Positions 1 through 60,231 of a stretch of 64,000 bases of DNA are shown here, one piece after another. The notes below the pieces were generated by a model that did not search any database, had not been told where the DNA came from, and worked only from the letters and a program-made list of their open reading frames with translations. This DNA comes from Elusimicrobiota bacterium (GTDB lineage: Bacteria > CG03 > SLGR01 > JBDRKX01): positions 886-64,885 of the forward strand of contig JBDRKX010000057.1 of the NCBI GenBank assembly GCA_043813605.1. Reading direction: 5' to 3'. Position 1 is the first letter of the stretch; each line of letters begins with the position of its first letter. The position numbers and the translations under genes were made by a program.

Positions 1-611
1 TGATAATCGTTTTTCGGGAATTCTTCCGGATCCAGCAACGCTTTTACACCTTCCTGCTTTGCTATAACTTTTGCCGGCTGATCATCTATTCCTCCGAAAA
101 AAAAGAAATGAAAAAAAAGCAATCCTGACAAGAGAACAGGAAAAACAAACGACATTGTCATTCTGAAGATATGCCTTTTTACTGTTATATAATAATAAGC
201 GAATCCCCACAAAATCAGCGCCATAAGTGTCATATGGGCTTCTGCTATGTACACGAGTTTCGTATTATACATTACTGCCGTGTGATAGAAATCCAACCAT
301 ATGTATCTGTAAATATAAGGAGGATAATGAGGCACAAACCACATAAAAACCGCAAACCATACCGTCATTCTCAGAAAAAGGGAAAACGCGTATTTCAACG
401 ATGGGATATATATATCAAAGGGTTTTTTGCCGGCATATAGATTGCCGGCTATGATCTCCATTAAGGCCACGGGCATAAACAGCAGAGACATAATAACACT
501 GTCGCTTGCTGATTCCCATGATAATCCGGCAATAATAATATAAATATAGATTGCCCAAACTGAAAACAGAGGGAATATGACCTCAAATATTTTTTTTCTG
601 TTTATGTTCAT
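1..611 (-). CDS. Polytopic membrane protein, N-terminal part of a 4th paralog of the membrane/beta-propeller family; the gene runs off the window start
   Basis: Reverse translation from an ATG at 609-611 gives MNINRKKIFEVIFPLF...FFFGGIDDQPAKVIAKQEGVKALLDPEEFPKNDY. It has multiple hydrophobic helices and the same FYFxGG(L/I) junction motif as ORFs 686-2266, 2272-3864 and 6902-8494. It is absent from the ORF track, which only shows an antisense 171-440 ORF. Confidence 0.6.
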   Translation of the reverse strand, partial: MNINRKKIFEVIFPLFSVWAIYIYIIIAGLSWESASDSVIMSLLFMPVALMEIIAGNLYAGKKPFDIYIPSLKYAFSLFLRMTVWFAVFMWFVPHYPPYIYRYIWLDFYHTAVMYNTKLVYIAEAHMTLMALILWGFAYYYITVKRHIFRMTMSFVFPVLLSGLLFFHFFFFGGIDDQPAKVIAKQEGVKALLDPEEFPKNDY

Positions 612-685
612 ATTTCAGCACTGAACATTATGTTATAATAATATCTTATATCTTGTCAAAGGTATTAAAACGCACAGCAATTACT

Positions 686-2266
686 CTATTTTAGGGAATT
701 TTTTTTCCATACCTGATCTAACTCTATCTTCACAATACCCGCCATAGAGTTGATATACATATCATCCCCGTAGACCGCCAGGCCGGCCGGTTTCCCGCCG
801 ACCTTAACACTCCATAGTCTTTCTCCGCTTTCTATATTGACCGCAATCAATCTGCCATACAGAAAACTGAGCATATATATTGCCTTTCTTTCCCTGTCAA
901 TCCGTATTTTCTGAACATAGGGTTCGCCTTTTAAAACACGCCTTATTTTCAGATCATCCAGTCCAACCAGATAAAGGCTGTCCGTACCGCCGGCCTGGCA
1001 ATAGAGCACTCCTTCATCTTCATCTATTTCCAGCGCTGAAGCGCCGTATATATCCAGATCCAGTGTTCTTATTACTTTCATGTTCTCTGGATCCACCTCA
1101 TAAATATCGTCGCTAAGATTCGTTCCGGTGACATAAAGCATGCCCGATCTGTCTGAAATGCATATATTCCACAAGAGCGTTCCGGGACGGGCATCCGGCG
1201 GGATCATATATCCCAGCATGTTCCCTGTTTCGTAATCATAACTGTAAAGACCGGCAAATATATCAGTACATATAAATATCCTTTTCCTTTCTATATCATG
1301 CCGTATATCGGATGTTTCCCAGTGTTTTACGTCTATTCCGGCAGGGAATGTCCTGATAACAGAAAGATCCCGCTTGTCCAGTTCATAAACTTTTTCTTCA
1401 TACCAAGGCACTGCAAGTATATGCTCTCCTTCGGCAGTCATTGCCCTTATGTAATAACCCGTTGAATATTCGGTCTGTTTGGTATCAATATCTATTCTAA
1501 GGATATTCGGAGATTTTTCATTAATATCTTTACCGAATGTTTTAGCATAATTCGCATACAACGCATTTTCTTTCGGATCTATATATATGTCCCGCGGATA
1601 TAACCTGTACTCTTCAGTCCATTTTAAATAATGAAAATAATCCTTTTTTGGGAATTCATCAGCCGAATAGAATATTTTCACACCATTCTGAGACGATATT
1701 TCTTCCGGTGAAGCTTTTCCCAGCCCGCCTGTGAAATAAAAGTGATAAAAAAGCATATAGCACAGTACCCCGGGCATTATCAGCGAACTGAAAATACGTA
1801 ATATCCGTTTTTTCACCGTAAGAAAAGAATACGATATAATCCATATTATGAATGCCAGCCAAGCCAAGTATGATTCTGCGGTAAAAACGAGTAACAGATT
1901 CGGGATAAAAAATGTGTAAATCAATTCCATATGTATGCGGTTGGCAGGCATATGCATTTCTACAAGCCAAAATGCATAGAGACACAGCCAGAAAACGATC
2001 CTGCCAAAAATAGTTATACGCGACAATGTTTTCTTCTGTGGTTTACCGGCAGAGTATTTATCAAAATAGCAGCGGTTCCAGACCGCTTCAAAAAAAACAA
2101 CAGGGACGAAAAATATTAAAAGGAACCATACATTGATTATGTCCTTAAGCATCAAATGGCTCAGCAGCCTGATATATACCACGACGATCCATACAGAGGT
2201 TAATGGAGAGAGGAAATAGACAATGCCTGACATCGCCTTCATTAATACCCTCTTTGTATAATCCAT
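686..2266 (-). CDS. Membrane protein with about 7 TM helices and a C-terminal YVTN/PQQ-like beta-propeller (paralog 1)
   Basis: N-terminal half is hydrophobic. Motif HFYFTGGLG is followed by repeated LYVTG and GKPAGLA blade-like motifs. It is paralogous to 2272-3864 and 6902-8494. Confidence 0.75.
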   Translation of the reverse strand: MDYTKRVLMKAMSGIVYFLSPLTSVWIVVVYIRLLSHLMLKDIINVWFLLIFFVPVVFFEAVWNRCYFDKYSAGKPQKKTLSRITIFGRIVFWLCLYAFWLVEMHMPANRIHMELIYTFFIPNLLLVFTAESYLAWLAFIIWIISYSFLTVKKRILRIFSSLIMPGVLCYMLFYHFYFTGGLGKASPEEISSQNGVKIFYSADEFPKKDYFHYLKWTEEYRLYPRDIYIDPKENALYANYAKTFGKDINEKSPNILRIDIDTKQTEYSTGYYIRAMTAEGEHILAVPWYEEKVYELDKRDLSVIRTFPAGIDVKHWETSDIRHDIERKRIFICTDIFAGLYSYDYETGNMLGYMIPPDARPGTLLWNICISDRSGMLYVTGTNLSDDIYEVDPENMKVIRTLDLDIYGASALEIDEDEGVLYCQAGGTDSLYLVGLDDLKIRRVLKGEPYVQKIRIDRERKAIYMLSFLYGRLIAVNIESGERLWSVKVGGKPAGLAVYGDDMYINSMAGIVKIELDQVWKKNSLK

Positions 2267-2271: not shown

Positions 2272-3864
2272 TTACTTATTCTCCCTTTTTGCCTGTGATG
2301 CCCTCCAGACTTCTTCAAGTTTTACAGAGATAATGCCCGCTCTTGAATTGATATATAGCATATCTCCGCCATAAGCCAGTCCGTAGGGCTTACCTCCCGT
2401 ATTCAGCTCCCAGTACCTCCTGCCGGTGTCAATATCAACTGCAGTTAGTTTTCCGTATATGTAGCTGAGGAGATAAAGACAGTTTCTGTCTTCATCTATA
2501 TGTATTTTTCTGGAATGCACACAACCCCTTATCTGTCTTTTTACCGTAAAAGATTCTATGTCTATTATGCACAATCGGTTTGTGCCCCAGTCCTGGCAAT
2601 ATATAACCTTATTCTTATCATCGAGCTTAAGCGCGCAGACCTCGACTATATCCAGGTCAAGTGTCCTGGTTATTTCAAGCCTGTCAGGATCGACTTCCAG
2701 CAGGTCTATTTTACCCGGTCCCTGCACAGCAAGATATATCATTCCCGTAGTTTCCGATACCTGCATAAGCCATAATTCTACTGTACCGAATTTTTTTAAA
2801 ATATCTGCTTCCATAGTGCCTATAAGTTCCCCTGTTTTATAATCGTATTTCTGGAGCCTGGCATCCATATCGTATGTTATATATACGCAATTCCTTGACC
2901 GATCCTTAAAAATATCCCGCACTTTACAGGAATTATACCTGTATTCTTTAAGCGCAAATACACGTCTTACTGACAGGTCTTTCTTTTCTAACTCATATAT
3001 TTTTTTCTCGAACCATGGTGCAGCCATAAGAGATGAATTACCGACCCATACATCCCGTATATAAAATCCGGCAAAATAATCTGTCTTTTTTGTATTTAGG
3101 TCTATCCTCAGTAAAGTCGGCATTCTTTTAGGCGTTTCTATCATGGTTTCTGCGTAAACGCAGTACAATGCATTCTCGGCATTGTCATAATAAAGACTCC
3201 TGGGATGAAACCGCACAGTATCATTCCATTTTGTATAATAGATGTAATCCGTTTTAGGGAAATCGGCGGCCGCGTATACCACGTCTACACCCGCCTGTTT
3301 TACTATTTCCTGCGTAGGCCGATCGCCTAATCCGCCGGCAAAATAAAAATGCTGCATCAGCAGATAACTAAAAAACACCGGAAGCAGAAGTGAAGAGAAT
3401 ATTCTAAAAACCCTCCTCTTTACTGCAAATCCGTAATAGGCAATAAGCCACAAAATAAACATAAGAACAGATATGTAGGATTCAGCCAGATATATAGACC
3501 AGGTCAGTGAAAAAAAATATCTTGGCGGAAAATTAAGAAACGCCCAATAATCATTATCGGGGAAATAAGCGTGTACCGTAAGATATAAATAGAGAACCAG
3601 CCAGAACAATATCCGTAATACCGCATGGACTGTCCCGGTCCAATTCCGGCCAAGAACTTTTCCGTCGGGAAACAACCTTGACAATACCAACTCATATAGT
3701 ATTACCGGGATAAAAAGCAGGATAGTCACCCCGGCATGAATACTGTTCCTGCTGTTCAGATGAAAGATCAGCCACAAATAGTAACCGGCGACCCATGTAA
3801 TCAACAGGGGTGTACAAAAAAAGCATACCTTGCGTATCAAATCCCGCAGCCATTTAGTATTCAT
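2272..3864 (-). CDS. Membrane protein with C-terminal YVTN/PQQ-like beta-propeller (paralog 2)
   Basis: Same architecture as paralog 1: HFYFAGGLG, LYINSRAGI, GGKPYGLA. It lies 5 nt from the neighbouring paralog and 1 nt from the upstream rSAM. Confidence 0.75.
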   Translation of the reverse strand: MNTKWLRDLIRKVCFFCTPLLITWVAGYYLWLIFHLNSRNSIHAGVTILLFIPVILYELVLSRLFPDGKVLGRNWTGTVHAVLRILFWLVLYLYLTVHAYFPDNDYWAFLNFPPRYFFSLTWSIYLAESYISVLMFILWLIAYYGFAVKRRVFRIFSSLLLPVFFSYLLMQHFYFAGGLGDRPTQEIVKQAGVDVVYAAADFPKTDYIYYTKWNDTVRFHPRSLYYDNAENALYCVYAETMIETPKRMPTLLRIDLNTKKTDYFAGFYIRDVWVGNSSLMAAPWFEKKIYELEKKDLSVRRVFALKEYRYNSCKVRDIFKDRSRNCVYITYDMDARLQKYDYKTGELIGTMEADILKKFGTVELWLMQVSETTGMIYLAVQGPGKIDLLEVDPDRLEITRTLDLDIVEVCALKLDDKNKVIYCQDWGTNRLCIIDIESFTVKRQIRGCVHSRKIHIDEDRNCLYLLSYIYGKLTAVDIDTGRRYWELNTGGKPYGLAYGGDMLYINSRAGIISVKLEEVWRASQAKRENK

Positions 3865-3865: not shown

Positions 3866-5251
3866 TCAGCAGTTTTTCCTGTTTCTTTTTAATCCCAGTA
3901 TATTATAATCCAACAACCTCTGTATAATATATCTTATTTGAAAAAGCCTCAGGTTCTCAATCAGTCCTCCCAATTGCCGCGGCCGCATAAAGAACTTCAA
4001 GAAAGCCCGCCTGACAGCAGAAGAAAGAATTTCTTCATCAACAGTCGGCGGGACCCATTTTACCGACTGAAAACTCCTCAATTTTCTGTCGGATTTGATC
4101 TCTGTCCCGTATTTTTCCCACAATTCAGTTCCGGGAAGAATATCAAGAAAAAGGAACTGGGCACGCAGCAACCGGCTTCTCAGCGCAAATTCTATTGTTT
4201 TCTCGATAGTTTCTTCTGTTTCCCCGGGCAGACCAAAGATAAAGAAACCCTGAACAGCAATTCCTGCTCTATCAATCATCTCTATGGCCCTGCCTATAAC
4301 TTCTACCGATGTATTCTTTCGGACATTATTAAGTATTCCCTCATCTGCGGATTCTATACCGAGAGCCAGCATATAACATCCCGACTTTTTCATAAGCGCA
4401 AGTAACTCATCATCAAGTAGCGTCTCTGCCCTCAATCCGTTAGGACAACACCAGGAGATATCCAGTTCACGCCTTATTATATCTTCGCATATTAAAGTAA
4501 GGTGTTTCCTGTCAGCAGATAGATTATCATCTTCAAAATGGATCTCTCTGACCCCGTATTCACGAACGAGATATTCTATTTCATCAACAACCAAGCGAGG
4601 TTTTCTGAAGCGAATAACATTACCCCATATCCCGCTCGAAGCGCAGAAACTGCAAACGCAGTAACATCCGCGCGTTGTTATTACCGGCGCCGCAGGAAAA
4701 CCCTTTATCAACCCTCCATGCGGAGCTTTTCTGTATTTGGAAGGATTGATCTGCTCCCAGTCCGGAATAGCTATCTCATTAATATCCGGTTTCAGCTTTC
4801 TAGGAATAAATCCTTCCCGGGATATCGCTGAATTCACAAACCCGGGTATTTTCAGGTTCTCAATTCCGGTATCTTGCATCCTGGTAATAATTTCTAGAAG
4901 TGTTTCTTCGCCTTCCCCCACTACGACACCGTCTGCTTTGGTCTTTTCCAGGCTCTCATATGGCATAGCTGTCGGATGAGGACCGCCCAAAACGACTTTA
5001 ACAGCCCGCTTTTTGAGCATCCCAGTCAGTTCTATGACATTATCAAAAAAGTCAGTCATACAGTATATGCCTACAAGATCACAATCGGATAACCTTGCCG
5101 CGAGCCTGCTGTTTTTTATTCTCAAGTTAAGTCCGTCTATAATAATCGTTTCTATCCCGGCTTTTTTTAAACTTGAACTCAGATAGCCCAGCGCAAGCGG
5201 AGGCGTTATCAGATGGGTATGGTATAATGGTCTGCAGAGGCCTACTTTCAT
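3866..5251 (-). CDS. B12-binding domain radical SAM protein (subfamily B, COG1032-like)
   Basis: N-terminal Rossmann-like B12-binding region (VLGGPHPT, VGEGE). Radical SAM motif TTRGCYCVCSFC fits CxxxCxxC. Confidence 0.8.
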   Translation of the reverse strand: MKVGLCRPLYHTHLITPPLALGYLSSSLKKAGIETIIIDGLNLRIKNSRLAARLSDCDLVGIYCMTDFFDNVIELTGMLKKRAVKVVLGGPHPTAMPYESLEKTKADGVVVGEGEETLLEIITRMQDTGIENLKIPGFVNSAISREGFIPRKLKPDINEIAIPDWEQINPSKYRKAPHGGLIKGFPAAPVITTRGCYCVCSFCASSGIWGNVIRFRKPRLVVDEIEYLVREYGVREIHFEDDNLSADRKHLTLICEDIIRRELDISWCCPNGLRAETLLDDELLALMKKSGCYMLALGIESADEGILNNVRKNTSVEVIGRAIEMIDRAGIAVQGFFIFGLPGETEETIEKTIEFALRSRLLRAQFLFLDILPGTELWEKYGTEIKSDRKLRSFQSVKWVPPTVDEEILSSAVRRAFLKFFMRPRQLGGLIENLRLFQIRYIIQRLLDYNILGLKRNRKNC

Positions 5252-5359: not shown

Positions 5360-6811
5360 TCATTCTGTTAGATTATCACCCGCACATACGAAAAAATATC
5401 CGATTATATATTCAAAATCCAGTCCATCCCTGAAGCCTGCTATAAAAAACCTGATAAGATTGATAAAAAAACCGGCTTTCTGCTTTTTAATCAGCCGGAA
5501 AGCCCTTCTTAATGTAAAATAAAAAAGACATTTATAACGGAATAATCCTACTTTGCGCGGATTCAGTGAGTCAGTTACTATATTGTACCTCCTGTGCAGT
5601 GAGTCTATTCCGTCCCACCCGGTGACTTTTCCTCCTTTCTCCAGCAGTATTTCGGCGGATCTTGTCTTATGGAGCGGCCGGTATGTGAAGAATATCGGCC
5701 TGTCCACATCCAGTTCCCTGACAAAATCGAATGTATCTTTAAGTGTTTCGGGCGTCTCTCCGGGTCCGCCCAGCATATTATAACCTGTTATCTTTATACC
5801 CTCTTTATGTATCATCTCAAAAACCCGCCTGTATTGGTCATTAGAGATATTCTTATTATATATCCCCCTGCGTATACCCTCATTCCCGGCTTCTATCCCG
5901 GTTCTTAATATTCTACAATTTGCTGACGCCAGCATCTTTATGCGTTCTTCGTCTATTGTATCTGCCCGGGTAAAGCACGAAAAAGGGAGCTCCCCCGATA
6001 ATCCGCTCTTTTTATACGCAGTTACAAAACCAAAAAGCCATTCCTTATTGTTCGGAAACACCGGATCGAAAATATGCGCGATACGCATACCTCTGTTTTT
6101 ATATTTTTCATAATGATATCTTATTTCTTCGACAAATGATTCAGGAGTGCGCCATCTGATATGGGGCCCGGGTATCTTTTCCCTCTTTAATGCCTCGGAA
6201 CAGTACGTACATGAAAATGGGCAGCCCCTGTTTCCTATTACATAGAGCATCTGATTATAGAACAGGTATTTATCTATGTCTTTCCACTGATCATAATCCG
6301 GGAACGGTAATGAGTCAAGGTCTTCTATTAATGGCCTTGTGGTATTCCTTACTATCTTTCCTGTATTATCCCTGAACCAGACACCTTTTATTCCACTGAA
6401 CGGCTTACTGTTTTCCAAATTATCAAGATATTCTTCCAATGCATATTCGCCGTCGCCCATAATAATAGCATCGACTTGCGGATAATTATTTATGGAATCA
6501 TCAGGATCGACTGCACAGTGCCAACCGCCCATAATTATTTTCAGAGAATCCTTATTCTTTTTTGCCTCTGATATTATTTCTCTGCAATAGGGCATATATA
6601 GAGATGTGGCGGATATGCCCAGCACATCCGGATCCTGGCTGCATAGTTCGGCGGCCAGATGTTTTTTCCATTTTTTCCGGTGGAATGTAAAATCGATTAT
6701 ACTCGATTCATGTATCGTACGTTCGTTTATATACGTAGAGAGACATGTTATGCCTATGTCCAGTATGGAAACATCTCCGCTCAGATTCGGATTGACAATA
6801 GAAACCTTCAT
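5360..6811 (-). CDS. B12-binding domain radical SAM protein (subfamily B)
   Basis: IIMGGWHC and MGDGE B12-domain motifs. IGNRGCPFSCTYC CxxxCxxC cluster. Confidence 0.8.
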   Translation of the reverse strand: MKVSIVNPNLSGDVSILDIGITCLSTYINERTIHESSIIDFTFHRKKWKKHLAAELCSQDPDVLGISATSLYMPYCREIISEAKKNKDSLKIIMGGWHCAVDPDDSINNYPQVDAIIMGDGEYALEEYLDNLENSKPFSGIKGVWFRDNTGKIVRNTTRPLIEDLDSLPFPDYDQWKDIDKYLFYNQMLYVIGNRGCPFSCTYCSEALKREKIPGPHIRWRTPESFVEEIRYHYEKYKNRGMRIAHIFDPVFPNNKEWLFGFVTAYKKSGLSGELPFSCFTRADTIDEERIKMLASANCRILRTGIEAGNEGIRRGIYNKNISNDQYRRVFEMIHKEGIKITGYNMLGGPGETPETLKDTFDFVRELDVDRPIFFTYRPLHKTRSAEILLEKGGKVTGWDGIDSLHRRYNIVTDSLNPRKVGLFRYKCLFYFTLRRAFRLIKKQKAGFFINLIRFFIAGFRDGLDFEYIIGYFFVCAGDNLTE

Positions 6812-6901: not shown

Positions 6902-8494
6902 CTAATCTGTCCTGTCGTATTTATTCCACACACTATTTAGATCAAGATATATTATGCCGGACATTGAACTTATGTAAAGTCGGTCTCCCTCACGGGCGAG
7001 TCCGTAAGGTTTCCCGCCGACTTTCAAAGACCATTTTCTTTTTCCTGATTCAAGGTCAAGAGCAACGATCCTGCCATAGAAATATCCTAAAAGATACAGG
7101 CAGCGCCTCTGCCTGTCAATAGAAATCCTGCGAGAATGGACTTCGCCGGACAGCAACCGCTTTACAGTGAATTTTCTGATATCAATCTCGTAAAGCCTTG
7201 ACGAGCCTCCGTCCTGGCAGTAAAGAACACCCTGTTCATCGTCTATCTTTAAAGCTGTCGGTTCTACAATATCAAAGTCAAGTGTTCTTGTTATTTTTAA
7301 AGTCGATGGGTCTATTTCAATAATATTCATATCTTTGGCTGCCTGCGGGACTATATATATCATGCCTGTCTTTTCTGAAACCTGCATAAGCCACAACTCT
7401 ACTGTTCCATAGTCTTTAAAACCGGCAGGGTCTGTCTCCATGACAAGCGAGCCCGTGCTGTAGTCGTACTTCTGCAGTACAGACTGCATATCATGCGTTA
7501 CATAGAGGCAGTTTTCCGCTTCACTATAGTGAATATCTCTGATTTTGAATGGATATATCCCGCCATCAAATGGGAATGATCTCACTAACGACAGATCATC
7601 TTTTCTGAATTCATATATTTTTCTTTCAAACCAGGGTGCAATAATAACAGTATCAGATGTCTGACAGATACTCCGGGCATAGTATGATGTCCGGTATACC
7701 GTACTTCGGGTTTCCATATCAATACGTAATAGACAGGGAAATATCTTTTTCTCTTCGTGAAAAGTATTCGCATACACTGCATACAGAGCATTTTGCCTAT
7801 TGTCTATGATTATCCCGCCGGGATTTAACTTCACTTTTTTTGTCCATTGCATAAAATGAGCATAATCCCTTCTGGGAAAATTATCTTCAGTATAGAATAT
7901 CTTTACTCCCGGCTGCCCTGCAATCGAATTCCCTGATGCCGAACCCATTCCGCCAAAAAAATAAAAATGGGCCATTAATCCGTATGCACACGCCCCCGGC
8001 AGTATAAGCGACACTACTATTCTTAATTTTCTTCTTTTTACTACAACCGCCCAATAGATCAAAAACCATAGAAAGAATGCGGCAAGTGCGTACAGCCATT
8101 GTGCTCTTAATATTGCACACACAAAATTAATTATATGCTGTAATGGAAACCCGAAAAAAAGGCGGATTTGAGTATCTGTGGCCCACGGCTGATGAGTCGA
8201 ATACACTGCATTAAGATAGAACAGATAAATAAAAAACCATAACATTATCCTTAAAGCAACGGCTATTTTTTCTTTTAATTCCAAGGGCCATAATCTAAGC
8301 GGGCGGCGCGATAAAAAAATGCCGCCGCCTGCCAGCTCTATCAATATTACCGGAAGAAAGAAGAGCAGCATAAGTCCTATAGGGATCCTGTTCTTATAAT
8401 TGATCTGATAAAGAAAACATATATACAGGACATTTACCCAGACGCCCGATAACGGGCCCAAAATCTGTGTTAGTTTTACTGCGATATACCGCAT
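6902..8494 (-). CDS. Membrane protein with C-terminal YVTN/PQQ-like beta-propeller (paralog 3)
   Basis: AHFYFFGGMG junction, then LYVTHDMQ, GGKPYGLA, LYISSMSG blades. It is paralogous to 686-2266 and 2272-3864. Confidence 0.75.
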   Translation of the reverse strand: MRYIAVKLTQILGPLSGVWVNVLYICFLYQINYKNRIPIGLMLLFFLPVILIELAGGGIFLSRRPLRLWPLELKEKIAVALRIMLWFFIYLFYLNAVYSTHQPWATDTQIRLFFGFPLQHIINFVCAILRAQWLYALAAFFLWFLIYWAVVVKRRKLRIVVSLILPGACAYGLMAHFYFFGGMGSASGNSIAGQPGVKIFYTEDNFPRRDYAHFMQWTKKVKLNPGGIIIDNRQNALYAVYANTFHEEKKIFPCLLRIDMETRSTVYRTSYYARSICQTSDTVIIAPWFERKIYEFRKDDLSLVRSFPFDGGIYPFKIRDIHYSEAENCLYVTHDMQSVLQKYDYSTGSLVMETDPAGFKDYGTVELWLMQVSEKTGMIYIVPQAAKDMNIIEIDPSTLKITRTLDFDIVEPTALKIDDEQGVLYCQDGGSSRLYEIDIRKFTVKRLLSGEVHSRRISIDRQRRCLYLLGYFYGRIVALDLESGKRKWSLKVGGKPYGLAREGDRLYISSMSGIIYLDLNSVWNKYDRTD

Positions 8495-8501
8495 AATACA
8501 G

Positions 8502-9905: not shown

Positions 9906-10996
9906 TTTAGTTCATTCCCCAGCGTTCTGCATAACATATCAGTTAATTTTAGAGGATTAAACAGTATGTTCGTGAGCAGATTGCATTCGTGTGTGCAGTA
10001 GCATTTTGTCCGTCTGATATGGGCTCTTATTGTCCGGGCTTCTTCTGAAAAAACCAGTTTTTTCAGGCTATAACCGGACTCCCGCAGATTTCCGATCTTC
10101 ATATCAAGCAGCTCGCACGGAAATACATCCCCGTTACTTTGTATTACAGCACTCATTTTACCGGCATAGCATTGCACCTGCCTGCTTTGATCTTCCAGTG
10201 TTTTCAATATTATTTTTCTTCTCAGCATATTGAAAGGCACATAAATCTTTGAGAACATACCGCTGTCACCGCCCCATTCCTGTCCTTCAGAATAATCGTT
10301 TTCTTCCATATTAGATATATCCCTGTAATAATCCGGATTGTATGCTTTGAAAGCCTTATCCCTGGTATAACCCCTGGTCAGTATTACAGTTATTGAATCC
10401 GGCTGCATCACCCTGAAAACATAGTCATAAGTCTTTTTTATATTCTCCTGATTAGCCGCCGAAAAAGTAATGTTTACCCCGAGATTCAGATTCTTATATC
10501 TTTTTTTAACCTCTTTCAGCATACGGAATGTTTCAAGAGCACAGGAGAAGACACCTTCATGACCCCTGATATTATCGTGCTCTTCTTTTATTCCGTCGAT
10601 CGCAATATCTACACTGAACTGTATATTACGGCATTTCTTCAGGATTTTCTCAACAGATGCCGCAATATTGTCCGATAACAGTCCGTTTGTAGGAGTTGTT
10701 ATTGTCTGAACTCCGTTGTTCTTTGCGAATATATATACTATTTCCGGCAGGTCACTACGCAGATACGGTTCTCCACCGGTCAGATTCAGAAAAAAAAACC
10801 GGCCGGCATTTTGTGAAATCTGCCGTATCTCGTCATAACTCAATTCATCTGCCGTATTGATGCTGTTTTTCACATTAAAACAGTGGCCACAGCTGCAATT
10901 GCAGTTTCCTGTCACAAAAAAAGTAATATATTCCGGCATCTGCATAGTCTTAAAAAACACTTTACCCGCCAGTCTGGCAATATCAGGCACTCTCAT
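9902..10996 (-). CDS. Radical SAM protein with C-terminal SPASM/twitch-like Cys cluster
   Basis: FVTGNCNCSCGHCFN CxxxCxxC; LTGGEPYL; C-terminal CYAG...FPCELL...CYCTHEC. The track ORF (to 11254) is trimmed to the internal Met (MRVPDIARL) at 10996, which abuts the stop of the GT2 gene. Confidence 0.7.
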   Translation of the reverse strand: MRVPDIARLAGKVFFKTMQMPEYITFFVTGNCNCSCGHCFNVKNSINTADELSYDEIRQISQNAGRFFFLNLTGGEPYLRSDLPEIVYIFAKNNGVQTITTPTNGLLSDNIAASVEKILKKCRNIQFSVDIAIDGIKEEHDNIRGHEGVFSCALETFRMLKEVKKRYKNLNLGVNITFSAANQENIKKTYDYVFRVMQPDSITVILTRGYTRDKAFKAYNPDYYRDISNMEENDYSEGQEWGGDSGMFSKIYVPFNMLRRKIILKTLEDQSRQVQCYAGKMSAVIQSNGDVFPCELLDMKIGNLRESGYSLKKLVFSEEARTIRAHIRRTKCYCTHECNLLTNILFNPLKLTDMLCRTLGNELK

Positions 10997-51956: not shown

Positions 51957-52116
51957 TTTCCGCAACTCGCGATGCGCATCTTTTCTTCTAGCATATTGTC
52001 CCATAATCCGGGAAAATATATTATTTCTTAGATTTTTTTGTATAATAATAAACGACAAGAATTATAACAAGAAAAAAATAATTCCGGCAGACTGTCACCA
52101 GAAAGGAACAGGAACG

Positions 52117-52986
52117 CTGAAAAAACATTTAATCATTGGAGCAAACGGGCAATTAGGATGCGATCTGACCAGGGTTCTGAGCGATAAAGACACGTCAACT
52201 CTGACCCATGATGATATCGAAATAGGCGATTATCAAACGGTCAAAGAAGTCTTAGGATCCATTAAGCCTGAAATAATAATAAACACAGCTGCTTATCATA
52301 ACGTTGAAGAATGTGAGAAAAACGAACTTGAAGCATTCAGGATCAATTCGATAGGCGCTAAAAACCTTGCTGTTGCTGCAGAAAGTATCGGCGCTACACT
52401 CATACATATAAGCACTGACTATGTTTTTGACGGCAAAAAAAACAGTCCCTACATAGAACATGACACCCCGAATCCGCTGAATACATACGGCCTGTCTAAA
52501 TTAGCAGGGGAATGCTACATCAGGAATAATACCGGTAAATATTTTATAATAAGGACAACAGGCCTATACGGGATGCATCAGTGCCGGGCAAAAAGCGGGA
52601 ATTTCATTGATACAATGCTCAGGCTGGCCCGGGAAAAAAAAGAGATAAAAGTCGTAAACGACCAGATATTGTCACCCACCTACACTCTTGACCTCGCACA
52701 TAAGATAGCGGAACTGGCGGATACTGATAAGTACGGCCTGTATCATATTGTAAATTCGGGTTTTTGTTCATGGTATGATTTTGCAAAAAAAATATTCGAA
52801 TATTCTGATATTAAAGCTGACCTGCAGCCCGTGAGATCCGATGAATTCCCATCATCGGTAAAAAGACCTTCATATTCTGTTCTGGACAGCATTAATTTTG
52901 AGCTTGCCGGAATAGGAAAACCGCGGAAATGGACTGAAGCGCTGATGGCATATATCGAAAAAAGGAGACAAAAAAATGATCAATGA
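52117..52986 (+). CDS. rmlD: dTDP-4-dehydrorhamnose reductase-like (RmlD-family SDR); start codon uncertain (possible CTG)
   Basis: HLIIGANGQLGCDL...INTAAYHNVEECEKNELEAFRINSIGAKNLAVAAESIGATLIHISTDYVFDG...YGLSKLAGE is the RmlD signature including the YxxxK catalytic motif. There is no in-frame ATG/GTG/TTG between the upstream stop and the Rossmann motif. CTG at 52117 is preceded by AAAGGAACAGGAAC. Confidence 0.7.
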   Translation: MKKHLIIGANGQLGCDLTRVLSDKDTSTLTHDDIEIGDYQTVKEVLGSIKPEIIINTAAYHNVEECEKNELEAFRINSIGAKNLAVAAESIGATLIHISTDYVFDGKKNSPYIEHDTPNPLNTYGLSKLAGECYIRNNTGKYFIIRTTGLYGMHQCRAKSGNFIDTMLRLAREKKEIKVVNDQILSPTYTLDLAHKIAELADTDKYGLYHIVNSGFCSWYDFAKKIFEYSDIKADLQPVRSDEFPSSVKRPSYSVLDSINFELAGIGKPRKWTEALMAYIEKRRQKNDQ

Positions 52987-53425
52987 CGTAAAACTGGTAC
53001 CCCTTGAGATATACATGGACGACAGGGGTTATCTGATTGAGATAATAAGGTCTGTGGACCCGCATTTCAACAAGTTCGGACAAGTGTATCTTGTAGGAGA
53101 TATGACGCGGGGCACAGTAAGGGCATTCCACAAGCACGATGTCCTGTGGGATTTCTTTTTTATATCACACGGATCAGCGAAATTCGGCCTTTATGACGAC
53201 AGGCCGGACAGCTCTACATATAAAGAAAGGGCCGTACTTGTTTCAGGAGAAAGAAAACCTTCTGTCCTTGTTGTCCCCCCCGGTGTATTTCACGGATGGA
53301 TGGCGCTGGAAGACGATACGCAGATGATCAGCATAGCAAGCGAAGTTTATAACAGGTCGAACCCTGACGAAGTCAGAGTGCCTCCGGATTCTTTCGGCTT
53401 TCAGTGGGAAATAGAAGGCCGATGA
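52976..53425 (+). CDS. RmlC-like cupin (dTDP-sugar 3,5-epimerase / keto-isomerase family)
   Basis: LEIYMDDRGYLIEI...FHKHDVLWDFFFISHGSAKFGLYD has cupin His residues typical of RmlC/FdtA-like sugar isomerases. 11-nt overlap with the upstream gene. Confidence 0.6.
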   Translation: MINDVKLVPLEIYMDDRGYLIEIIRSVDPHFNKFGQVYLVGDMTRGTVRAFHKHDVLWDFFFISHGSAKFGLYDDRPDSSTYKERAVLVSGERKPSVLVVPPGVFHGWMALEDDTQMISIASEVYNRSNPDEVRVPPDSFGFQWEIEGR

Positions 53426-54411
53426 TCTTAGTAACAGGAGGGGCAGGATACATAGGCAGTGTCCTTGTAAGAAGACTGCTTGACCGCGGATACCGGGTTA
53501 AAGTATACGATACTTTCTTTTTCGGGGAGGAACCTCTCGAAGAAGTCAGGGAGAATATCCTGATTGAAAGAGGAGATATCAGGGATTTCAATGAAAAAGT
53601 ACTCGAAAATATCGATGCTGTTATCCACCTGGCAGCACTTTCTAATGATCCTACTGCCGAATATAATCCTGGAACAAACATGGAGATCAATGCCGAAGGA
53701 ACCAGGTCACTGGCGCGCCTATGCAAAAAATGCGGGATAAAAAAGTTTATTTACGCTTCTTCCTGTTCTGTCTACTATACCGAGGAAGTCTGTGATGACC
53801 TGAAAGACGAAAATTCCCCCGTCTCTCCGGCTGCGCCCTATTCCCTCTCTAAGTTAAAAGGTGAAGAGGCTCTTCTGGAATTAGCAGACGCTGACTTTGC
53901 TCCCGTCTTATTAAGGCAGGGTACCGTCTACGGAATGAGTCCGAGAATGAGATACGACCTTGTGGTAAATACTATGGTAAAGGACATATTCACCACAGGA
54001 ACGATAAAAGTATTTGCCCGGGGTGAAATGTGGAGGCCGATTATAAGCGTTAATAATATAGTTGATTTTTACATATACTGCCTGGAGACCGATACGGATA
54101 TCGGCGGCGAGATTATCAACCTGGTCCATAAGAACTATCGGATAATCGATCTTGCCGGACAGGTAAAGGAAGTCCTGAAAGATATCAAAGACATCCGGAT
54201 CGATGTGCAGGAATTCATACCAAGCAAATTTAGAAGCTACAGAGTCTCAAACAAGAAAAGCAGGGATTTACTCGGATTTACCGCCGAAGAAACCCCTGAG
54301 GATACTGCAATGGAGATATATAAATCCTTAGAAAAAAACGGATTATCGGAAGTAAATAATCCTGTATACTATAATATTCAGTGGATGGAAGAAAAAGGGT
54401 ACCTTAAATAA
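53422..54411 (+). CDS. NAD-dependent sugar epimerase/dehydratase (extended SDR)
   Basis: MILVTGGAGYIGSVLVRRLL Rossmann motif. YSLSKLKGE YxxxK. The ATG overlaps the upstream TGA (ATGA). Confidence 0.8.
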   Translation: MILVTGGAGYIGSVLVRRLLDRGYRVKVYDTFFFGEEPLEEVRENILIERGDIRDFNEKVLENIDAVIHLAALSNDPTAEYNPGTNMEINAEGTRSLARLCKKCGIKKFIYASSCSVYYTEEVCDDLKDENSPVSPAAPYSLSKLKGEEALLELADADFAPVLLRQGTVYGMSPRMRYDLVVNTMVKDIFTTGTIKVFARGEMWRPIISVNNIVDFYIYCLETDTDIGGEIINLVHKNYRIIDLAGQVKEVLKDIKDIRIDVQEFIPSKFRSYRVSNKKSRDLLGFTAEETPEDTAMEIYKSLEKNGLSEVNNPVYYNIQWMEEKGYLK

Positions 54412-54440: not shown

Positions 54441-55565
54441 TCAGTTAAATCTCTTTAATATCCTCTCTTTATTGGGAAAAAAAGCTTTTTCCAGCATAAC
54501 ACCATTTGTGCAAGAAAGCCAGCAGTGGCATTTTTTACTATTAAAATATTCACGTATTTTCTCTGCTTTATCCCCGGACCACACAGCGTCAAAACCCGAT
54601 ACCCTTACATTGCCGGCAAGCATCTCTTTATGTACCGGGCAGAAATAAAGATTGCCTTCAGGATCCATCATGGCGAATCTTTCGCCGCAGGGACAGTCAG
54701 GAAAAAACCGGGCCGGATCTTTTAAGTATTTTAACAGATAGTGAAAATCCAGGAGATAGAACAGCAGGCTCAGGTCATTGAACAGCTGCGCAGGGCTGAA
54801 AACAGCCCAATCCATGCGGTTGTATATATCTTCTATGATGCAGTCTATCGAATGTTCAACAGCAGTTATATTCTCCGGAGTCCACTCAAACCTCTGCGTA
54901 TCCTTTTTCTGCACCATCAACTGGAACGATACTCTGAATCCCATTTTTCCCGCCCACTCATATACAGGGAATATCTGATCTGAGTTTTCCGGGATCAGCG
55001 TGAAATTAAAGCAAGGGAACATGCCGGGATACTTCTTTCTTAACAACAGCGCCGATTCCACAAGGGCGTCAAATGCCCCATTCACACCCCTTATCCTGTC
55101 ATGCACACCTTTTATCCCGTCTAAAGACGTTCCCAGCGATATATTGTCCAACCCGGAAGTCTTTTCTATTTCTTTTATTCCGGATAGAACTTTATCTGTA
55201 TTGAGAAGGTTGGAGAGTATCAATATACCGGGTCGCGGATATCTTTTGCGAAAAAAGGACACTATGGCAGGAAATTCGCTGTGAAGCCATGGCTCACCGC
55301 CCGAGAGTATTATGTACCTGATATCATCCAGCATTTCCGAGTTTTCAACGATCTTTTTGATTTTAGCCAAACTCAGATCCTTGTTTTTCTGTCTCTTCTT
55401 CCTGTACTTGAGATCGCACATTATACAGTCGGAATCGCACCTGTATGTAAGTTCAAAATGAAGTTCCGAAGGCGGATTAGCGCCAACGGAGACCCCGATA
55501 ACATTTTCTTCCATATAATTCCCGAGTTCCTTGAGAAATTTCTTTACTTCAACTGCAATGCTCAT
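54441..55565 (-). CDS. Radical SAM protein with C-terminal twitch/SPASM-like Cys cluster
   Basis: LTYRCDSDCIMCDL CxxxCxxC; ILSGGEPWLHSEF; C-terminal FCPVHKE...CHCWLSCTNG. Confidence 0.7.
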   Translation of the reverse strand: MSIAVEVKKFLKELGNYMEENVIGVSVGANPPSELHFELTYRCDSDCIMCDLKYRKKRQKNKDLSLAKIKKIVENSEMLDDIRYIILSGGEPWLHSEFPAIVSFFRKRYPRPGILILSNLLNTDKVLSGIKEIEKTSGLDNISLGTSLDGIKGVHDRIRGVNGAFDALVESALLLRKKYPGMFPCFNFTLIPENSDQIFPVYEWAGKMGFRVSFQLMVQKKDTQRFEWTPENITAVEHSIDCIIEDIYNRMDWAVFSPAQLFNDLSLLFYLLDFHYLLKYLKDPARFFPDCPCGERFAMMDPEGNLYFCPVHKEMLAGNVRVSGFDAVWSGDKAEKIREYFNSKKCHCWLSCTNGVMLEKAFFPNKERILKRFN

Positions 55566-57238
55566 AATATGCTTTTTAACTCTTCTAGTTTCTCTTTTAT
55601 CGTATCTATTATCTCCGGGGCTTCGAAATCACCCTTTTCAAAATCCAGGGCAGCCTCGTAGTTCTCTATCGCTCTCCTGAAATCTCCTTGTTTTTCAAAG
55701 TTCTCTGCAAGTTTGCTGTATGTGTCCCTGTTCCTTGCTTCTTCATTCAGGGATCTCTCGTAACATCCCGCGGCCCGGGCATGGTCTCCCTCATAGGAAT
55801 AATAATCACCCAGCAGCGCCCATTTATCCGGTTTCTTCAAAAGGACTCCCGAAGTCTCCGGGACACCTATACCGAGTGCGTATTGACAAAATCTTTCGTA
55901 CCTGTCGAACCTCAGTGCATAATCATTTTTATCCGCTTTCCAGTATAGATGATGGTCCCCCGAACTTATCCCGAACTCTGACGGGTTATTACGTAAATAA
56001 GTCCCTTTTTCCAGTGTACAGAATGACTGGCTTGCCAGAACATTATTTATATAAGGGCGTACTTTTTTTAAAAAATCAAGTGTTTCAAAAAAATCCTCTT
56101 CGGTTTCCCCGGGAAATCCGAATACTATGTTTATCTGAGCATTGATCCCGGCTTCATACGTATTTTTCAGCACTTCCACCGCTTCTTCCGGCCGATGTCT
56201 TTTATTCATCTTCTCAAGAACCCGCCCGGAACCCGACTCCACTCCGAAATAAAGCCATTCACATCCCGCAGCATTCATCTTTTTCAGAAGTTCCGGCGTC
56301 ATATCTTTTCTTATCATGGCCTGACCGGCCCATCTGATACTCAATGAATTCTCCAATACAAGTTCGCAGAATTCATCAAGTACTTTCAAACTGCCGTTCA
56401 AAAGCAGTCCGTTAAAATAGAAATAGTCGGTTTCAGGCATTTTATCAATATGATAAGTTATCTGCTCAAAAAGTCTTCTGCCGCTCATTGTCCGGTATTT
56501 CTGCCAGAAAAGGCGTTCATAACAGAAATGACAGTCATTGATACAGCCTCTGCTGTCAAGGATATCTATTCTGCCGGGCTGACTGTACGGCATGGTCCGC
56601 ATGTCTTCTGTAAAATCATCATATTCAGGGAACAGAAGCGCATCCAGGTCACTGACAACCTGCGGATCGCCGCAATCAATGATATCCTTTCCCTCTTTAA
56701 CCAGAAAACCCGGGCATCGCGGTAAGCCCCCTTTATCATTCCCGCCCTCAAGTTTCTCTATCAATTCCGGTAACGCTATATCAGCTTCACCTGTACAAAC
56801 ATAGTCCACATGATCCTGCGCGATAAAATCAAAGGCCATCTGTGCACGGGAAGCTTTGTGCCCCATAAACACGGTTACTATGTCACTATCGGTTTCTTTT
56901 ATCTTCCGCGCCAGTTCAAGACTTATCAGTGTATTCGGCGTATGCGTGGTAAAACATACCATCCCGGGATGCTGACTCGTTATTTTTTTAACATTCTCCT
57001 TAAAAACACTATCTGTAAATAATTGTTCTACAAATGAAGGATTCTCCCATAGGGAATAATAATCTCTGTTATCCCAGTATTTTCTGTATTCTGAACTGCA
57101 CTCATAATACAGAGAATTGTTCATATCGAAAACAGACACTTCATGGCCTTTGTTCCTGAGCAATGTCGAAAAAAAAGCAAGTATATATGGGGGGCAATAG
57201 CGGACCCACCAGGGACATTTAACAAGCGCTATCCTCAT
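55562..57238 (-). CDS. B12-binding domain radical SAM protein fused to C-terminal TPR repeats
   Basis: MGHKASR, TGEAD, LDSRGCINDCHFCY CxxxCxxC. The last about 110 aa show TPR-like helical repeats (YYSYEGDHARAAGCYERSL...YSKLAENFEKQGDFRRAIENYEAAL). Confidence 0.75.
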   Translation of the reverse strand: MRIALVKCPWWVRYCPPYILAFFSTLLRNKGHEVSVFDMNNSLYYECSSEYRKYWDNRDYYSLWENPSFVEQLFTDSVFKENVKKITSQHPGMVCFTTHTPNTLISLELARKIKETDSDIVTVFMGHKASRAQMAFDFIAQDHVDYVCTGEADIALPELIEKLEGGNDKGGLPRCPGFLVKEGKDIIDCGDPQVVSDLDALLFPEYDDFTEDMRTMPYSQPGRIDILDSRGCINDCHFCYERLFWQKYRTMSGRRLFEQITYHIDKMPETDYFYFNGLLLNGSLKVLDEFCELVLENSLSIRWAGQAMIRKDMTPELLKKMNAAGCEWLYFGVESGSGRVLEKMNKRHRPEEAVEVLKNTYEAGINAQINIVFGFPGETEEDFFETLDFLKKVRPYINNVLASQSFCTLEKGTYLRNNPSEFGISSGDHHLYWKADKNDYALRFDRYERFCQYALGIGVPETSGVLLKKPDKWALLGDYYSYEGDHARAAGCYERSLNEEARNRDTYSKLAENFEKQGDFRRAIENYEAALDFEKGDFEAPEIIDTIKEKLEELKSIL

Positions 57239-58833: not shown

Positions 58834-58881
58834 CCTCCGGCAATATCTCTTTCTTAATATCTTAATGTGAAACCGGCAATT

Positions 58882-60231
58882 TTACAAACTCCTGTTTTCC
58901 CTGCCTTTCCACCGCCATAGAGGGGTAATTGAGCACTGCTTCCATATTTCCAGCTTTTCCATACATAAATATAACAGAATACCTGCATCATGTTTTCGTA
59001 TATGTTTTGCTATTTTTCTGTATATATCCGCCCTGACAGCGTCGGTATATCTTAATTTGCCGTCAAATCCTATTATAAGCTCCTCATCCAGTATATTATT
59101 ATCAGGAAACCTGTTTTCTATGATCTTTTTAAGTTCACGGCGAAATCGCAGTGAACCCAGGCTTATCCACCTTATTCTTTCCTTGTCAATATTATCAAAA
59201 AGATCTCCTATCAACTGCCTGTAATCCTCTTCCCACCCGTCATAGTAGACAACAGGATCGAAATGAAAGGCGACATCAAATCCATGCTGTACACAGCGGG
59301 AAGCGGCCTTAAGGCGGTTTTCCAGAGTTGCAGAATAGAATTCATTATTATCTATAACCGGCTGCGGGTTGAGTGACCATGCCACAACAACGTTATCTGC
59401 TGCCGGAACATCCAGTATATTTTCGATATTATCCGATTTTGTCTTGAATTCGAACACTGTTTCAGGGTGTCTTCTGAAGAACTCTATTATGTGTTTCGAA
59501 TACCCCGTAACGGGATCAAGAGCGAGAGAATCCGTAAACTCTCCGGAACCGATACGCCTTCCCATGCCGGCGTATGCGCCGAGCTTTTCCAGGTATTCCG
59601 CCATGTTCGACTGGATCACTATCCCGGGAGTATTGGTATATTCCTGGAGATAGCAGTATGTACATTCATAAGGACAGCCGAAACCCATATTAAATATGTG
59701 ATAGCCGCAGGAGACACACCCCTGAGTACAGGGACAGGTACGGAAAAAATCGAATTCTTCTTCAATTATAAAAAATGTTTTTCTCCTTTTATTATATGTC
59801 TCCAGCGAATATATATTTTCTTTTATGTATTCCTTGTAACTGCTGATCTCAATATATTCCGATTCTTCATACTTCTGCCGCACATCTTCCAGCAAAATGG
59901 AGTCTGCCGACATGCTGTCATAATAGACTGTTTCAGGATATAATTCAATTTCACTTATATCCGCTTTATTTTCGGGACGTATTGATATATCAGGAAGATA
60001 CGGTTTATATTTTTCGCCGGACAATGAAGTGCGCCGGAACCTCAGAACCAGCAGTCTTTTCTTTATTTCATTGAAAGACATATCCTGAAGTTCAGATGCC
60101 AGGTCCCGCAATGCAATATTGTCTTTTTTTGCGATCTCGTAAAAAAGGCGGGTGATTTCTCTTTTTTTATTTACTCCCAGCCGTACGAAATTCTTTTCAA
60201 CAAAGTCCCTTATTTCTTCAGCCGAGTTCAT
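58882..60231 (-). CDS. Spore-photoproduct-lyase-family (COG1533-like) radical SAM protein with a 170-aa N-terminal extension and an extra Cys cluster
   Basis: GFGCPYECTYCYLQ is the SPL-type CxxxCxxC with the YCYL signature. It is immediately preceded by CPCTQGCVSCGY. A C-terminal SPL-like alpha/beta region. Confidence 0.65.
   Translation of the reverse strand: MNSAEEIRDFVEKNFVRLGVNKKREITRLFYEIAKKDNIALRDLASELQDMSFNEIKKRLLVLRFRRTSLSGEKYKPYLPDISIRPENKADISEIELYPETVYYDSMSADSILLEDVRQKYEESEYIEISSYKEYIKENIYSLETYNKRRKTFFIIEEEFDFFRTCPCTQGCVSCGYHIFNMGFGCPYECTYCYLQEYTNTPGIVIQSNMAEYLEKLGAYAGMGRRIGSGEFTDSLALDPVTGYSKHIIEFFRRHPETVFEFKTKSDNIENILDVPAADNVVVAWSLNPQPVIDNNEFYSATLENRLKAASRCVQHGFDVAFHFDPVVYYDGWEEDYRQLIGDLFDNIDKERIRWISLGSLRFRRELKKIIENRFPDNNILDEELIIGFDGKLRYTDAVRADIYRKIAKHIRKHDAGILLYLCMEKLEIWKQCSITPLWRWKGRENRSL

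Follow-up and report, generated by a model that had tools for sequence, protein, structure and literature searches.

Some of the most difficult reactions in biology, the methylation of unactivated carbon among them, are the work of cobalamin-dependent (class B) radical S-adenosylmethionine (rSAM) enzymes, of whose many known sequences very few have an assigned substrate. GenK, Fom3 and PhpK belong to the methylases of this class, and other members perform non-methylation chemistry, among them OxsB (ring contraction), BchE (cyclisation) and ApyD. AprD4 makes no use of cobalamin, and a B12-type domain is thus by itself no proof of cobalamin use. Clusters of up to 13 rSAM genes, several of them fused to B12-binding domains, have been found in groundwater Elusimicrobia beside nitrogenase-like genes of group VI (Meheust et al. 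2020, 10.1101/765248), a group to which a 2026 review (PMC13474568) still assigns no function. We analysed a stretch of 64,000 nucleotides (the window) from an Elusimicrobiota bacterium (GenBank assembly GCA_043813605.1, contig JBDRKX010000057.1, positions 886 to 64,885 of the forward strand), in which rSAM genes, most of them of the class B type, are crowded among envelope-glycan and transporter genes. With a probability of about one half, we read the window as a mosaic envelope and specialised-metabolism island of at least three independently inherited, separately conserved cassettes built around class B rSAMs, whose chemistry would be radical C-methylation and whose roles would differ between a lipid-linked-sugar/propeller cassette (I), an importer operon (II) and a deoxysugar operon (III).

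From the window we extracted 51 long, non-overlapping open reading frames (ORFs), referred to here by their left-hand coordinate. The CxxxCxxC motif occurs in exactly 14 of them (3866, 5360, 8502, 9902, 25438, 26891, 29614, 37037, 41879, 44011, 48469/48535, 54441, 55562 and 58882), in agreement with the original prediction of 14 rSAM enzymes in 64 kb. All 14 carry rSAM domains: PF04055 (Radical_SAM) lies above the Pfam cut-off in 13, and 58882, in which the PF04055 match is weak, belongs to the spore-photoproduct-lyase (SPL) rSAM family PF20903 (98.5 bits). The accompanying prediction that ten have a B12-binding domain held for nine, in which PF02310 scored 40–68 bits (3866, 5360, 8502, 25438, 26891, 29614, 37037, 44011 and 48469/48535), and stopped short of the tenth, 55562, a protein with a TPR region at its C-terminus in which PF02310 scored 24.3 bits (E = 2.9e-5), under the Pfam cut-off of 32.1 bits. 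Both domains were thus recovered by hidden Markov model searches, as the earlier note had expected, and the membership of window proteins in class B is solid. The four rSAMs of other types are the SPASM proteins 9902 and 54441, the SPL-like 58882, and 41879, which has a MoaA-like N-terminus and a Cys-rich, SPASM-like C-terminus. The rSAM density far exceeds chance: at assumed background rates, not taken from this genome, the probability of at least 14 rSAM genes among 51 is ~1e-12 (2% background) or ~1e-6 (6%), and that of at least ten B12-rSAMs is ~9e-11 (1%). GC content is uniform (39–43%) and GC skew steadily negative, and this even composition gives no sign of a chimeric contig.

Four of the B12-rSAMs (25438, 26891, 29614 and 48535) form a tight subfamily A with pairwise identities of 36–52%, against 22–34% for all other B12-rSAM pairs in the window. 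The motifs GIGCHS(V/I)HLPF and GGIGPS and the DYYRYKTPDLEKKLEL tail are legible in the translations of 25438, 26891, 29614 and 48469, bearing out the predicted division into a close subfamily and a loose remainder. For the last of these genes, the ATG at 48535 is a more plausible start than the TTG at 48469 that opens the longest ORF, because the paralogs align from that methionine. None of the ten belongs to a characterised family, since all fall under every NCBIfam cut-off. Among the named families compared (BchE, HpnJ, HpnR, PhpK, BzaD, ApyD, KedN5, AprD4, TsrM, ArsL, the methyl-coenzyme M reductase (MCR) Gln methylase and the TIGR04072 'ladderane' type), the best ratio of score to cut-off was ~0.37 (3866 against TIGR04013; 3866 matches BchE best among the NCBIfam models, with 161 bits where 481 are required). 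Over all NCBIfam families the highest ratio was ~0.48, for 55562 against TIGR03975, a C-methyltransferase subfamily of ribosomally synthesised and post-translationally modified peptides (RiPPs; 134 against 282 bits). The matches included no NCBIfam model for GenK, Fom3, GenD1, CloN6 or OxsB, so that the cut-off comparison applies to the other families.

Against the PDB, a subfamily-A profile matched the MCR glutamine C-methyltransferase MgmA/QCMT (9ccb) best (1e-34), followed by AprD4, CysS, OxsB and TokK. Foldseek comparison, which covered 29614, gave the same picture: the AlphaFold2 model of this protein (mean predicted local distance difference test score of 93.8) retrieved MgmA, CysS, TokK, OxsB and TsrM at the top (E = 3e-23 to ~1e-18; template-modelling scores of 0.63–0.67 on the query), placing subfamily A, by its predicted structure, in the class B fold. 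Homologs of 29614 were found almost only in metagenome-assembled genomes (MAGs) of Elusimicrobiota and Omnitrophota and in metagenomes. A profile scan of genome contigs with subfamily A listed mostly distant B12-rSAMs (≤33% identity); on a rough count among the matches listed, these B12-rSAMs neighbour glycosyltransferases of families 2 and 4 (GT2 and GT4) in at least nine and at least eight loci, respectively, and DegT and epimerase genes in at least four loci each. The cultured Clostridium sp. KNHs214 (L088 in our numbering of loci, JQMW01000014.1) encodes a relative of subfamily A (34% identity) whose RiPP-like surroundings include several SPASM rSAMs together with small ORFs and an M50 peptidase, and which could serve as an experimentally tractable, distant stand-in.

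Cassette II, in which rSAM genes are interleaved with those of an importer, occupies three parts of the window. Its transport/rSAM operon (23033–32166, minus strand), annotated with Pfam and NCBIfam, runs in the order porin (31057), 29614, solute-binding protein (SBP; 28405), 26891, 25438, two BPD_transp_1 permeases (24602 and 23811) and ATP-binding cassette (ABC) ATPase (23033). An accessory block (41879–46636, minus strand) holds a GT4 gene (45455), the B12-rSAM 44011, a class I SAM methyltransferase (43203) and the Cys-rich, SPASM-like rSAM 41879, and the fourth subfamily-A gene (48535–49977, plus strand) is 51–59% identical to the gene beside the 29614 ortholog in five related loci (L001, L003, L005, L086 and L087). 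The porin is Porin_O_P-like and of the anion type, and the SBP has TauA (1.7e-5) and SsuA as its best PDB matches, with scores of 86.5 bits for SsuA_fam (cut-off 163.5) and 24 bits for TauA (cut-off 304). Orthologous porin/ABC/A-type blocks are present in L086, L087 and L090 at 44–71% identity, the SBP being the best-conserved protein of the set (69–75%). In the Omnitrophota locus L087, a contiguous run begins with GT4 (49% to 45455), a B12-rSAM (43% to 44011), a methyltransferase (48% to 43203), porin (44%) and SBP (71%), continues with an A1 gene (66% to 29614), an A2 gene (58% to 48535), a class I/II aminotransferase, another A2 gene, permeases (65% and 66%) and ATPase (65%), and ends with an rSAM (41% to 41879) and two more B12-rSAMs. 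Because this run joins both sets, segments 23033–32166, 41879–46636 and 48535–49977 of the window can be taken as one conserved system that is spread out here.

L086 (Elusimicrobiota-like, JGI) and L090 (a metagenome) have their A-type genes interleaved differently with those for porin, SBP, permease and ATPase, and carry two or three 41879-type genes; genes of that type stand alongside A-type genes in all of L001, L003, L005, L086, L087 and L090. A 926-aa ORF of L090 (3422–6202, plus strand) fuses a B12-rSAM (31% to 8502) to a 41879-type rSAM (33%), suggesting that the two families are functionally linked. L001, L003 and L005 have a core without the importer that comprises an aminotransferase, A1, A2, a further B12-rSAM, a 41879-type rSAM and a methyltransferase. 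In L001 and L005 this core adjoins a Wzm/Wzt-type ABC-2 exporter and Kds and Lpt genes, and ABC-2 exporters lie beside the cassette in L086 and L090 too, four other loci in total. In L001 (4915–7257) and L005 (3500–5824) the Wzt-like exporter ATPase is fused to a DegT/aminotransferase domain, which is odd for a polysaccharide exporter. A distant operon in Candidatus Adiutrix combines a SPASM rSAM, a B12-rSAM, an NMT1-type SBP, a permease and an ATPase. An SBP search of metagenome contigs returned six loci, mostly short. The occurrence of the importer operon in both Elusimicrobiota and Omnitrophota (41–71% identity) suggests horizontal spread among groundwater and sediment anaerobes, or old retention.

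The companions of subfamily A outside the window bear on what cassette II acts upon. A class I/II aminotransferase invariably accompanies the set there and is conserved in five of the other loci (57–68% identical among them); it resembles aspartate/aromatic aminotransferases, with GntC closest, and not the DegT/sugar type, and it also resembles C–S beta-lyases of the PatB family (118 bits). Further neighbours of amino-acid or 2-oxoacid type are RidA (L086), a pyridoxal phosphate (PLP) decarboxylase and IorAB-like 2-oxoacid:ferredoxin oxidoreductase genes (L090), and a 2-hydroxyacid dehydrogenase (L001 and L005). Together, these genes point to an amino-acid or 2-oxoacid-type small molecule, not a sugar, as the direct substrate. 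A tentative and, in our view, still doubtful extension is that cassette II constitutes a cross-phylum, uptake-coupled rSAM system in which the anion porin and TauA/SsuA-like importer would feed an amino-acid-like compound directly to a PLP enzyme and to several rSAMs, namely cobalamin-type ones and a SPASM-like one. This would result either in a new anaerobic assimilation of an organic sulfur, phosphorus or nitrogen compound or in a new poly-C-methylated metabolite that is exported, displayed at the surface, or both. An IS110-family transposase gene (32414–33793, plus strand; PF01548 101 bits, PF02371 81 bits) lies just upstream of the porin gene. The minus-strand ORF that encloses it (32144–33832) has no family match and is probably spurious.

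Cassette III (33978–38482, minus strand) runs in the order B12-rSAM (37037), DegT/LegC/PseC-like sugar aminotransferase (35943), GT2 (35213) and nucleoside diphosphate (NDP)-hexose 3-C-methyltransferase (33978), with the first two genes overlapping by 4 nt. 33978 combines a Zn-binding N-domain, a SAM domain and a C-terminal C-methyltransferase domain (PF08421, PF13489 and PF08484, the last at 164 bits), aligns over residues 3–416 with the D-mycarose 3-C-methyltransferase 4rv9 (3e-64) and also matches TcaB9 (1e-47), a domain set and full-length homology that identify it, by sequence, as a TcaB9/TylC3-type enzyme. Cassette III is a true, classical branched amino-deoxysugar set. The family of 37037 is large (more than 1,194 matches at E < 1e-30), with homologs at 57–58% identity in other genomes. 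In L097, a Deltaproteobacteria MAG, a 42% homolog occurs with a B12-rSAM, an rSAM, two methyltransferases, a family 9 glycosyltransferase (GT9), two PMT_2 genes and a GT2, and the link of the 37037 family to sugar genes is frequent, not fixed.

Cassette I has its core at 6902–12039 (minus strand), transcribed in the order GT2 with C-terminal transmembrane helices (10993–12039), SPASM rSAM (9902–11254), B12-rSAM (8502–9905) and membrane/beta-propeller protein (6902–8494). The JGI contig L095 carries a GT2 (53% to 10993), a SPASM rSAM (47% to 9902), a B12-rSAM (55% to 8502), a propeller protein (36%) and a second propeller paralog in the order of the window, and cassette I thus recurs on an unrelated contig. 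Beyond this set, the window has two extra B12-rSAMs (both minus strand), 3866–5251 (PF02310 66.8 bits, PF04055 74.9 bits) and 5360–6811 (60.6 and 78.1 bits; under every NCBIfam cut-off), and more propeller paralogs. Two of the latter (686–2266 and 2272–3864, minus strand) join a multi-helix membrane N-terminus to a seven-bladed C-terminal propeller and have no Pfam match above cut-off; 686, 2272 and 6902 are 37–44% identical pairwise, their propellers are YncE-like and the family is rare, with nine relatives among 5.8e9 proteins. A 204-aa open frame at positions 1–620 (minus strand) resembles the N-termini of these three by eye, not by alignment, and appears to be the N-terminal part of a fourth paralog truncated at the left edge of the window, indicating that the island extends beyond it. 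Homology in 9902 begins only at about residue 41–87 and its longest-ORF start overlaps the upstream gene; the true start is probably further downstream.

These recurrences bear on whether the island is one pathway. The earlier note had envisaged a dozen paralogs with a combinatorial action on a single sugar or glycolipid, a picture that fits poorly with the 22–34% identity outside subfamily A, with orthologs that are closer outside the window than any relative inside it (8502, 55% in L095; 37037, 57–58%; 44011, 43% in L087; 29614, 60–66%) and with the independent occurrence of the parts. A single integrated pathway, in which the ten B12-rSAMs and the four other rSAMs would work on one elaborate sugar or glycolipid assembled by the local glycosyltransferases, could draw on the near-uniform orientation and short gaps of the genes, on the glycan genes found throughout the window, on L087, where the GT4/44011/43203 block that lies 10 kb away in the window is joined to the transporter block, which argues that those parts belong together, and on L097, which also brings B12-rSAMs together with GT9, PMT_2, GT2 and methyltransferase genes. 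We nevertheless consider it distinctly unlikely: L095 has cassette I only, the A-type genes of L001, L003 and L005 stand without an importer, L096 has a lone 37037 ortholog, the companions of subfamily A elsewhere are of amino-acid type, the sequence divergence just described argues against it, and the island is interrupted by IS110, eight regulatory genes and two ankyrin genes. The same interruptions break the purely glycan setting that had been proposed for all of the rSAM genes; glycan genes are indeed rich around them, but three of the four subfamily-A genes sit in a porin/SBP-dependent ABC importer operon. Neighbourhood comparison, too, found the locus conserved elsewhere not as one block but as cassettes I and II recurring separately. 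The claim that no described pathway matches the locus is supported. NCBIfam cut-offs were not reached, and literature searches that paired B12-rSAMs with polysaccharide, lipopolysaccharide (LPS), Elusimicrobia, Omnitrophota or sulfonate SBPs turned up no account of these cassettes, nor any of B12-rSAM cassettes tied to NitT/TauT importers or of a membrane/propeller cassette. The kind of enzyme is well known; the cassettes are undescribed, above all the cross-phylum porin/importer operon with interleaved B12-rSAMs.

Under the mosaic reading, each B12-rSAM would use its [4Fe-4S]/SAM site to take a hydrogen atom from an unactivated carbon, which would then receive a methyl group from methylcobalamin. 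Radical C-methylation is the most likely chemistry by analogy, because the closest relatives of solved structure (MgmA, CysS and TokK) have it as their default activity. The SPASM partner in two of the cassettes could contribute oxidation, epimerisation or C–C chemistry. Cassette III would tailor a branched amino sugar derived from an NDP-4-keto-6-deoxyhexose, and the target of cassette I would be a lipid-linked sugar, which after modification would be handled beyond the cytoplasmic membrane, the propellers being presumably periplasmic. In cassette II, the porin and TauA/SsuA-like importer would take up an amino-acid-like anionic compound, which two to four A-type B12-rSAMs, a 41879-type rSAM, a methyltransferase and, in other genomes, an aminotransferase would turn into a heavily C-methylated unit; this unit could be attached to a surface glycan, as the GT4 neighbours here and in L087 would allow, or be exported, as the ABC-2 genes of the four other loci would allow. 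Several observations weigh against this scheme. Methylation is only a prior, because class B chemistry varies and AprD4 needs no cobalamin. The conserved aminotransferase of cassette II was not found in the window in a search that included pseudogenes, and the IS110 gene beside the porin means that the cassette may be rearranged or incomplete here; the insertion may indeed be the cause of its dispersal and of the lack of the aminotransferase. Three short contigs with related SBPs have an SBP–permease interval without an rSAM gene. On the long contig L096, the 37037 ortholog (57%) stands alone beside an FGGY kinase without a link to sugar genes, and in cassette I the propeller topology and the role of the GT2 are predictions drawn only from transmembrane analysis and an AlphaFold2 model.

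The interleaving of rSAM genes with porin, SBP and permease genes in four orders (the window, L086, L087 and L090) would also suit a different function of cassette II, in which an anionic nutrient, for instance one like an organosulfonate, or else a chelator released by secretion, is taken up (or exported and taken up again) and processed anaerobically by the rSAMs and a PLP enzyme. The high conservation of the SBP and its nearest solved relatives TauA and SsuA fit such uptake, as do the likeness of the PLP enzyme to C–S beta-lyases, the RidA gene in the L086 operon and, for export with re-uptake, the adjoining ABC-2 exporters; rSAM enzymes such as IsrB take part in anaerobic sulfonate assimilation (PMC11423573). 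We rate this account as unlikely. Several paralogs alongside an ordinary methyltransferase look biosynthetic, the rSAM/aminotransferase core of L001 and L005 comes with a Wzm/Wzt exporter and without an importer, and the window is without desulfonating or sulfite-handling genes. We also know of no class B rSAM with a catabolic role. Modification of ribosomal peptides, with B12-rSAM/SPASM pairs methylating or cross-linking a RiPP precursor, is improbable to a still higher degree. SPASM partners are typical of RiPP clusters and are present here, the best NCBIfam matches include the RiPP enzyme ApyD for subfamily A and TIGR03975 for 55562, and the KNHs214 relative sits in just such surroundings; all of these scores, however, lie far under the family cut-offs. 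The gaps beside the rSAM genes (10–108 nt) leave almost no space for a precursor gene, and across the window and six related loci we found no conserved free-standing small ORF, only antisense shadows of large genes, in a search that very short or non-conserved precursors could escape. Family scans of the window also gave no leader peptidase, RiPP recognition element or ABC_membrane-type exporter. Least probable of all, and hardly to be expected, is the tailoring of a hopanoid-, ladderane- or tetraether-like membrane lipid: HpnJ and TIGR04072 (lipid biosynthesis B12-binding/radical SAM protein) are among the top NCBIfam matches and Tes is among the weak matches of 9902 and 41879, but the scores are well under cut-off (TIGR04072, 154 against 360 bits) and family scans of the window found no squalene, hopene, fatty-acid or ether-lipid genes.

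Between and beyond the cassettes, the window holds many further genes of envelope type. In total it contains three GT2, two GT4, a GT9, a PMT_2, a DegT, an RmlD, an epimerase, a polysaccharide deacetylase and an NDP-hexose 3-C-methyltransferase gene, and eight signalling or regulatory genes and two ankyrin genes lie within the island. Next to cassette I are an FAD oxidoreductase (amine-oxidase/UDP-galactopyranose-mutase-like, PRK07208 group) and an XrtA-system-type polysaccharide deacetylase (11981–14330, minus strand; TIGR03006 291 bits against a cut-off of 276). These are followed by a regulatory block (14383–18762, minus strand) with a receiver protein, an OmpR-type regulator, a GGDEF protein and a HAMP histidine kinase. 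The GGDEF protein (15657–17438, minus strand) carries three receiver domains and shares the block with the histidine kinase and two response regulators, an arrangement that suggests cyclic di-GMP-linked control of envelope genes. A GT9 (heptosyltransferase-like), a GT4, a weakly HprK-like P-loop protein and a GT2 with C-terminal transmembrane helices occupy 18796–22977 (minus strand). Further along, 38769–41771 (minus strand) encodes a small methyltransferase, a small membrane protein, a receiver–AraC regulator and an ankyrin protein with a hydrophobic N-terminus (41040–41771, minus strand) that is probably secreted, and a large ankyrin-repeat protein with a hydrophobic N-terminal segment lies at 46671–48236 (minus strand). 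Secreted ankyrin proteins are unusual in free-living bacteria; an ankyrin gene is likewise found near the B12-rSAM/ABC importer operon of Candidatus Adiutrix (L046, 16811–17974).

On the plus strand, 50226–54411 encodes an ArnT-like GT-C glycosyltransferase (PMT_2), the dTDP-4-dehydrorhamnose reductase RmlD and an NAD-dependent epimerase/dehydratase. TIGR01214 matches residues 140–416 of ORF 51712–52986 with 313 bits (cut-off 224), and the true RmlD start is probably well inside this ORF; the longest-ORF starts of 51712–52986 (plus strand), 9902–11254 and 20969–22162 (both minus strand) overlap the upstream genes by 190–260 nt. Two rSAM pairs complete the right-hand part, neither of them with informative conserved context in the data compared. 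The first (54441–57238, minus strand) consists of the B12-type rSAM with C-terminal TPR (55562) followed by the SPASM rSAM 54441. The second (58882–60922, minus strand) joins the SPL-family rSAM 58882, whose gene overlaps its neighbour, to a PNP_UDP_1 nucleosidase/phosphorylase-like protein (60218; PF01048 52.5 bits). 58882 has an N-terminal extension of ~95 aa and a second CxxxCxxC (residues 168 and 186), and it belongs to the wider PF20903 family only, not to the spore photoproduct lyase equivalog (TIGR04070, 118 bits against a cut-off of 400). This pair may serve in salvage of 5'-deoxyadenosine or S-adenosylhomocysteine for the many rSAMs, or in unrelated repair. At 60940–63260 (minus strand) follow a TIGR03545-family protein (228 bits, above cut-off) and a DUF2062 membrane protein, apparently unrelated to the rSAM cassettes, and the right edge of the island lies near 63.3 kb, where thioesterase-like and dUTPase-like ORFs begin (both identified by eye only). 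Searches of the window with Rfam families, the cobalamin riboswitch included, and for tRNAs found none, and promoter and terminator counts equalled the shuffled expectation and were not informative.

Taken as a mosaic, the island supplies three compact, recurrent gene contexts open to experiment: the deoxysugar operon, the lipid-linked-sugar/propeller cassette and the importer operon. For the last of these, the ligand of the SBP should reveal the substrate of the pathway. Should the products prove to be attached to LPS or surface glycans, they would represent new, highly methylated envelope structures in phyla with almost no cultured members.

Compared with the described systems, the locus shares with those of Meheust et al. 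its phylum, the close spacing of many rSAM genes and the fusion of several to B12-binding domains; there the neighbours are tetrapyrrole genes, here, in a comparison of gene content, they are glycan and transporter genes. The window does not qualify as a group VI nitrogenase-like (Nfl) rSAM locus, since none of its 51 scanned ORFs matches NifH/D/K-like families (Fer4_NifH, Oxidored_nitro). With the solved class B methylases MgmA/QCMT (9ccb), CysS (9n1b-d) and TokK (7kdx/7kdy), subfamily A shares the arrangement of a B12-binding Rossmann domain at the N-terminus ahead of an rSAM barrel with CxxxCxxC, and the predicted fold of 29614 matches these best, at an identity of only 14–19%; what sets subfamily A apart is a distinctive, conserved helical region and tail at the C-terminus and its place in a transporter operon. 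Cassette II resembles the NitT/TauT importers TauABC and SsuABC in its NMT1/SsuA-type SBP, whose nearest solved relatives are TauA and SsuA, its two BPD_transp_1 permeases and its ATPase. It departs from them in an SBP that scores under the family cut-offs, a dedicated Porin_O_P-like porin and B12-rSAM genes amid the transporter genes, and family scans of the window ORFs gave no TauD/SsuD-type desulfonating enzyme. The Arn-type modification of lipid-linked sugars (ArnB/C/D/T) has analogues in the window, by domain family only, in the DegT aminotransferase, the membrane-anchored GT2s, a deacetylase-family enzyme and the ArnT-like PMT_2; here the parts are scattered, and equivalents of ArnA or ArnE/F were not identified in the window. 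Also close are the branched deoxy-amino-sugar pathways (TcaB9, D-mycarose 3-C-methyltransferase, KijD1 and DegT-type aminotransferases), of which the window has a clear full-length homolog in 33978 together with DegT, RmlD and epimerase/dehydratase genes, and from which it differs in a B12-rSAM translationally coupled to the DegT gene. To our knowledge, a B12-rSAM in a deoxysugar pathway is familiar only from aminoglycoside clusters (GenK/GenD1), and aminoglycoside and polyketide pathways differ from the window in that its context is that of an envelope glycan.

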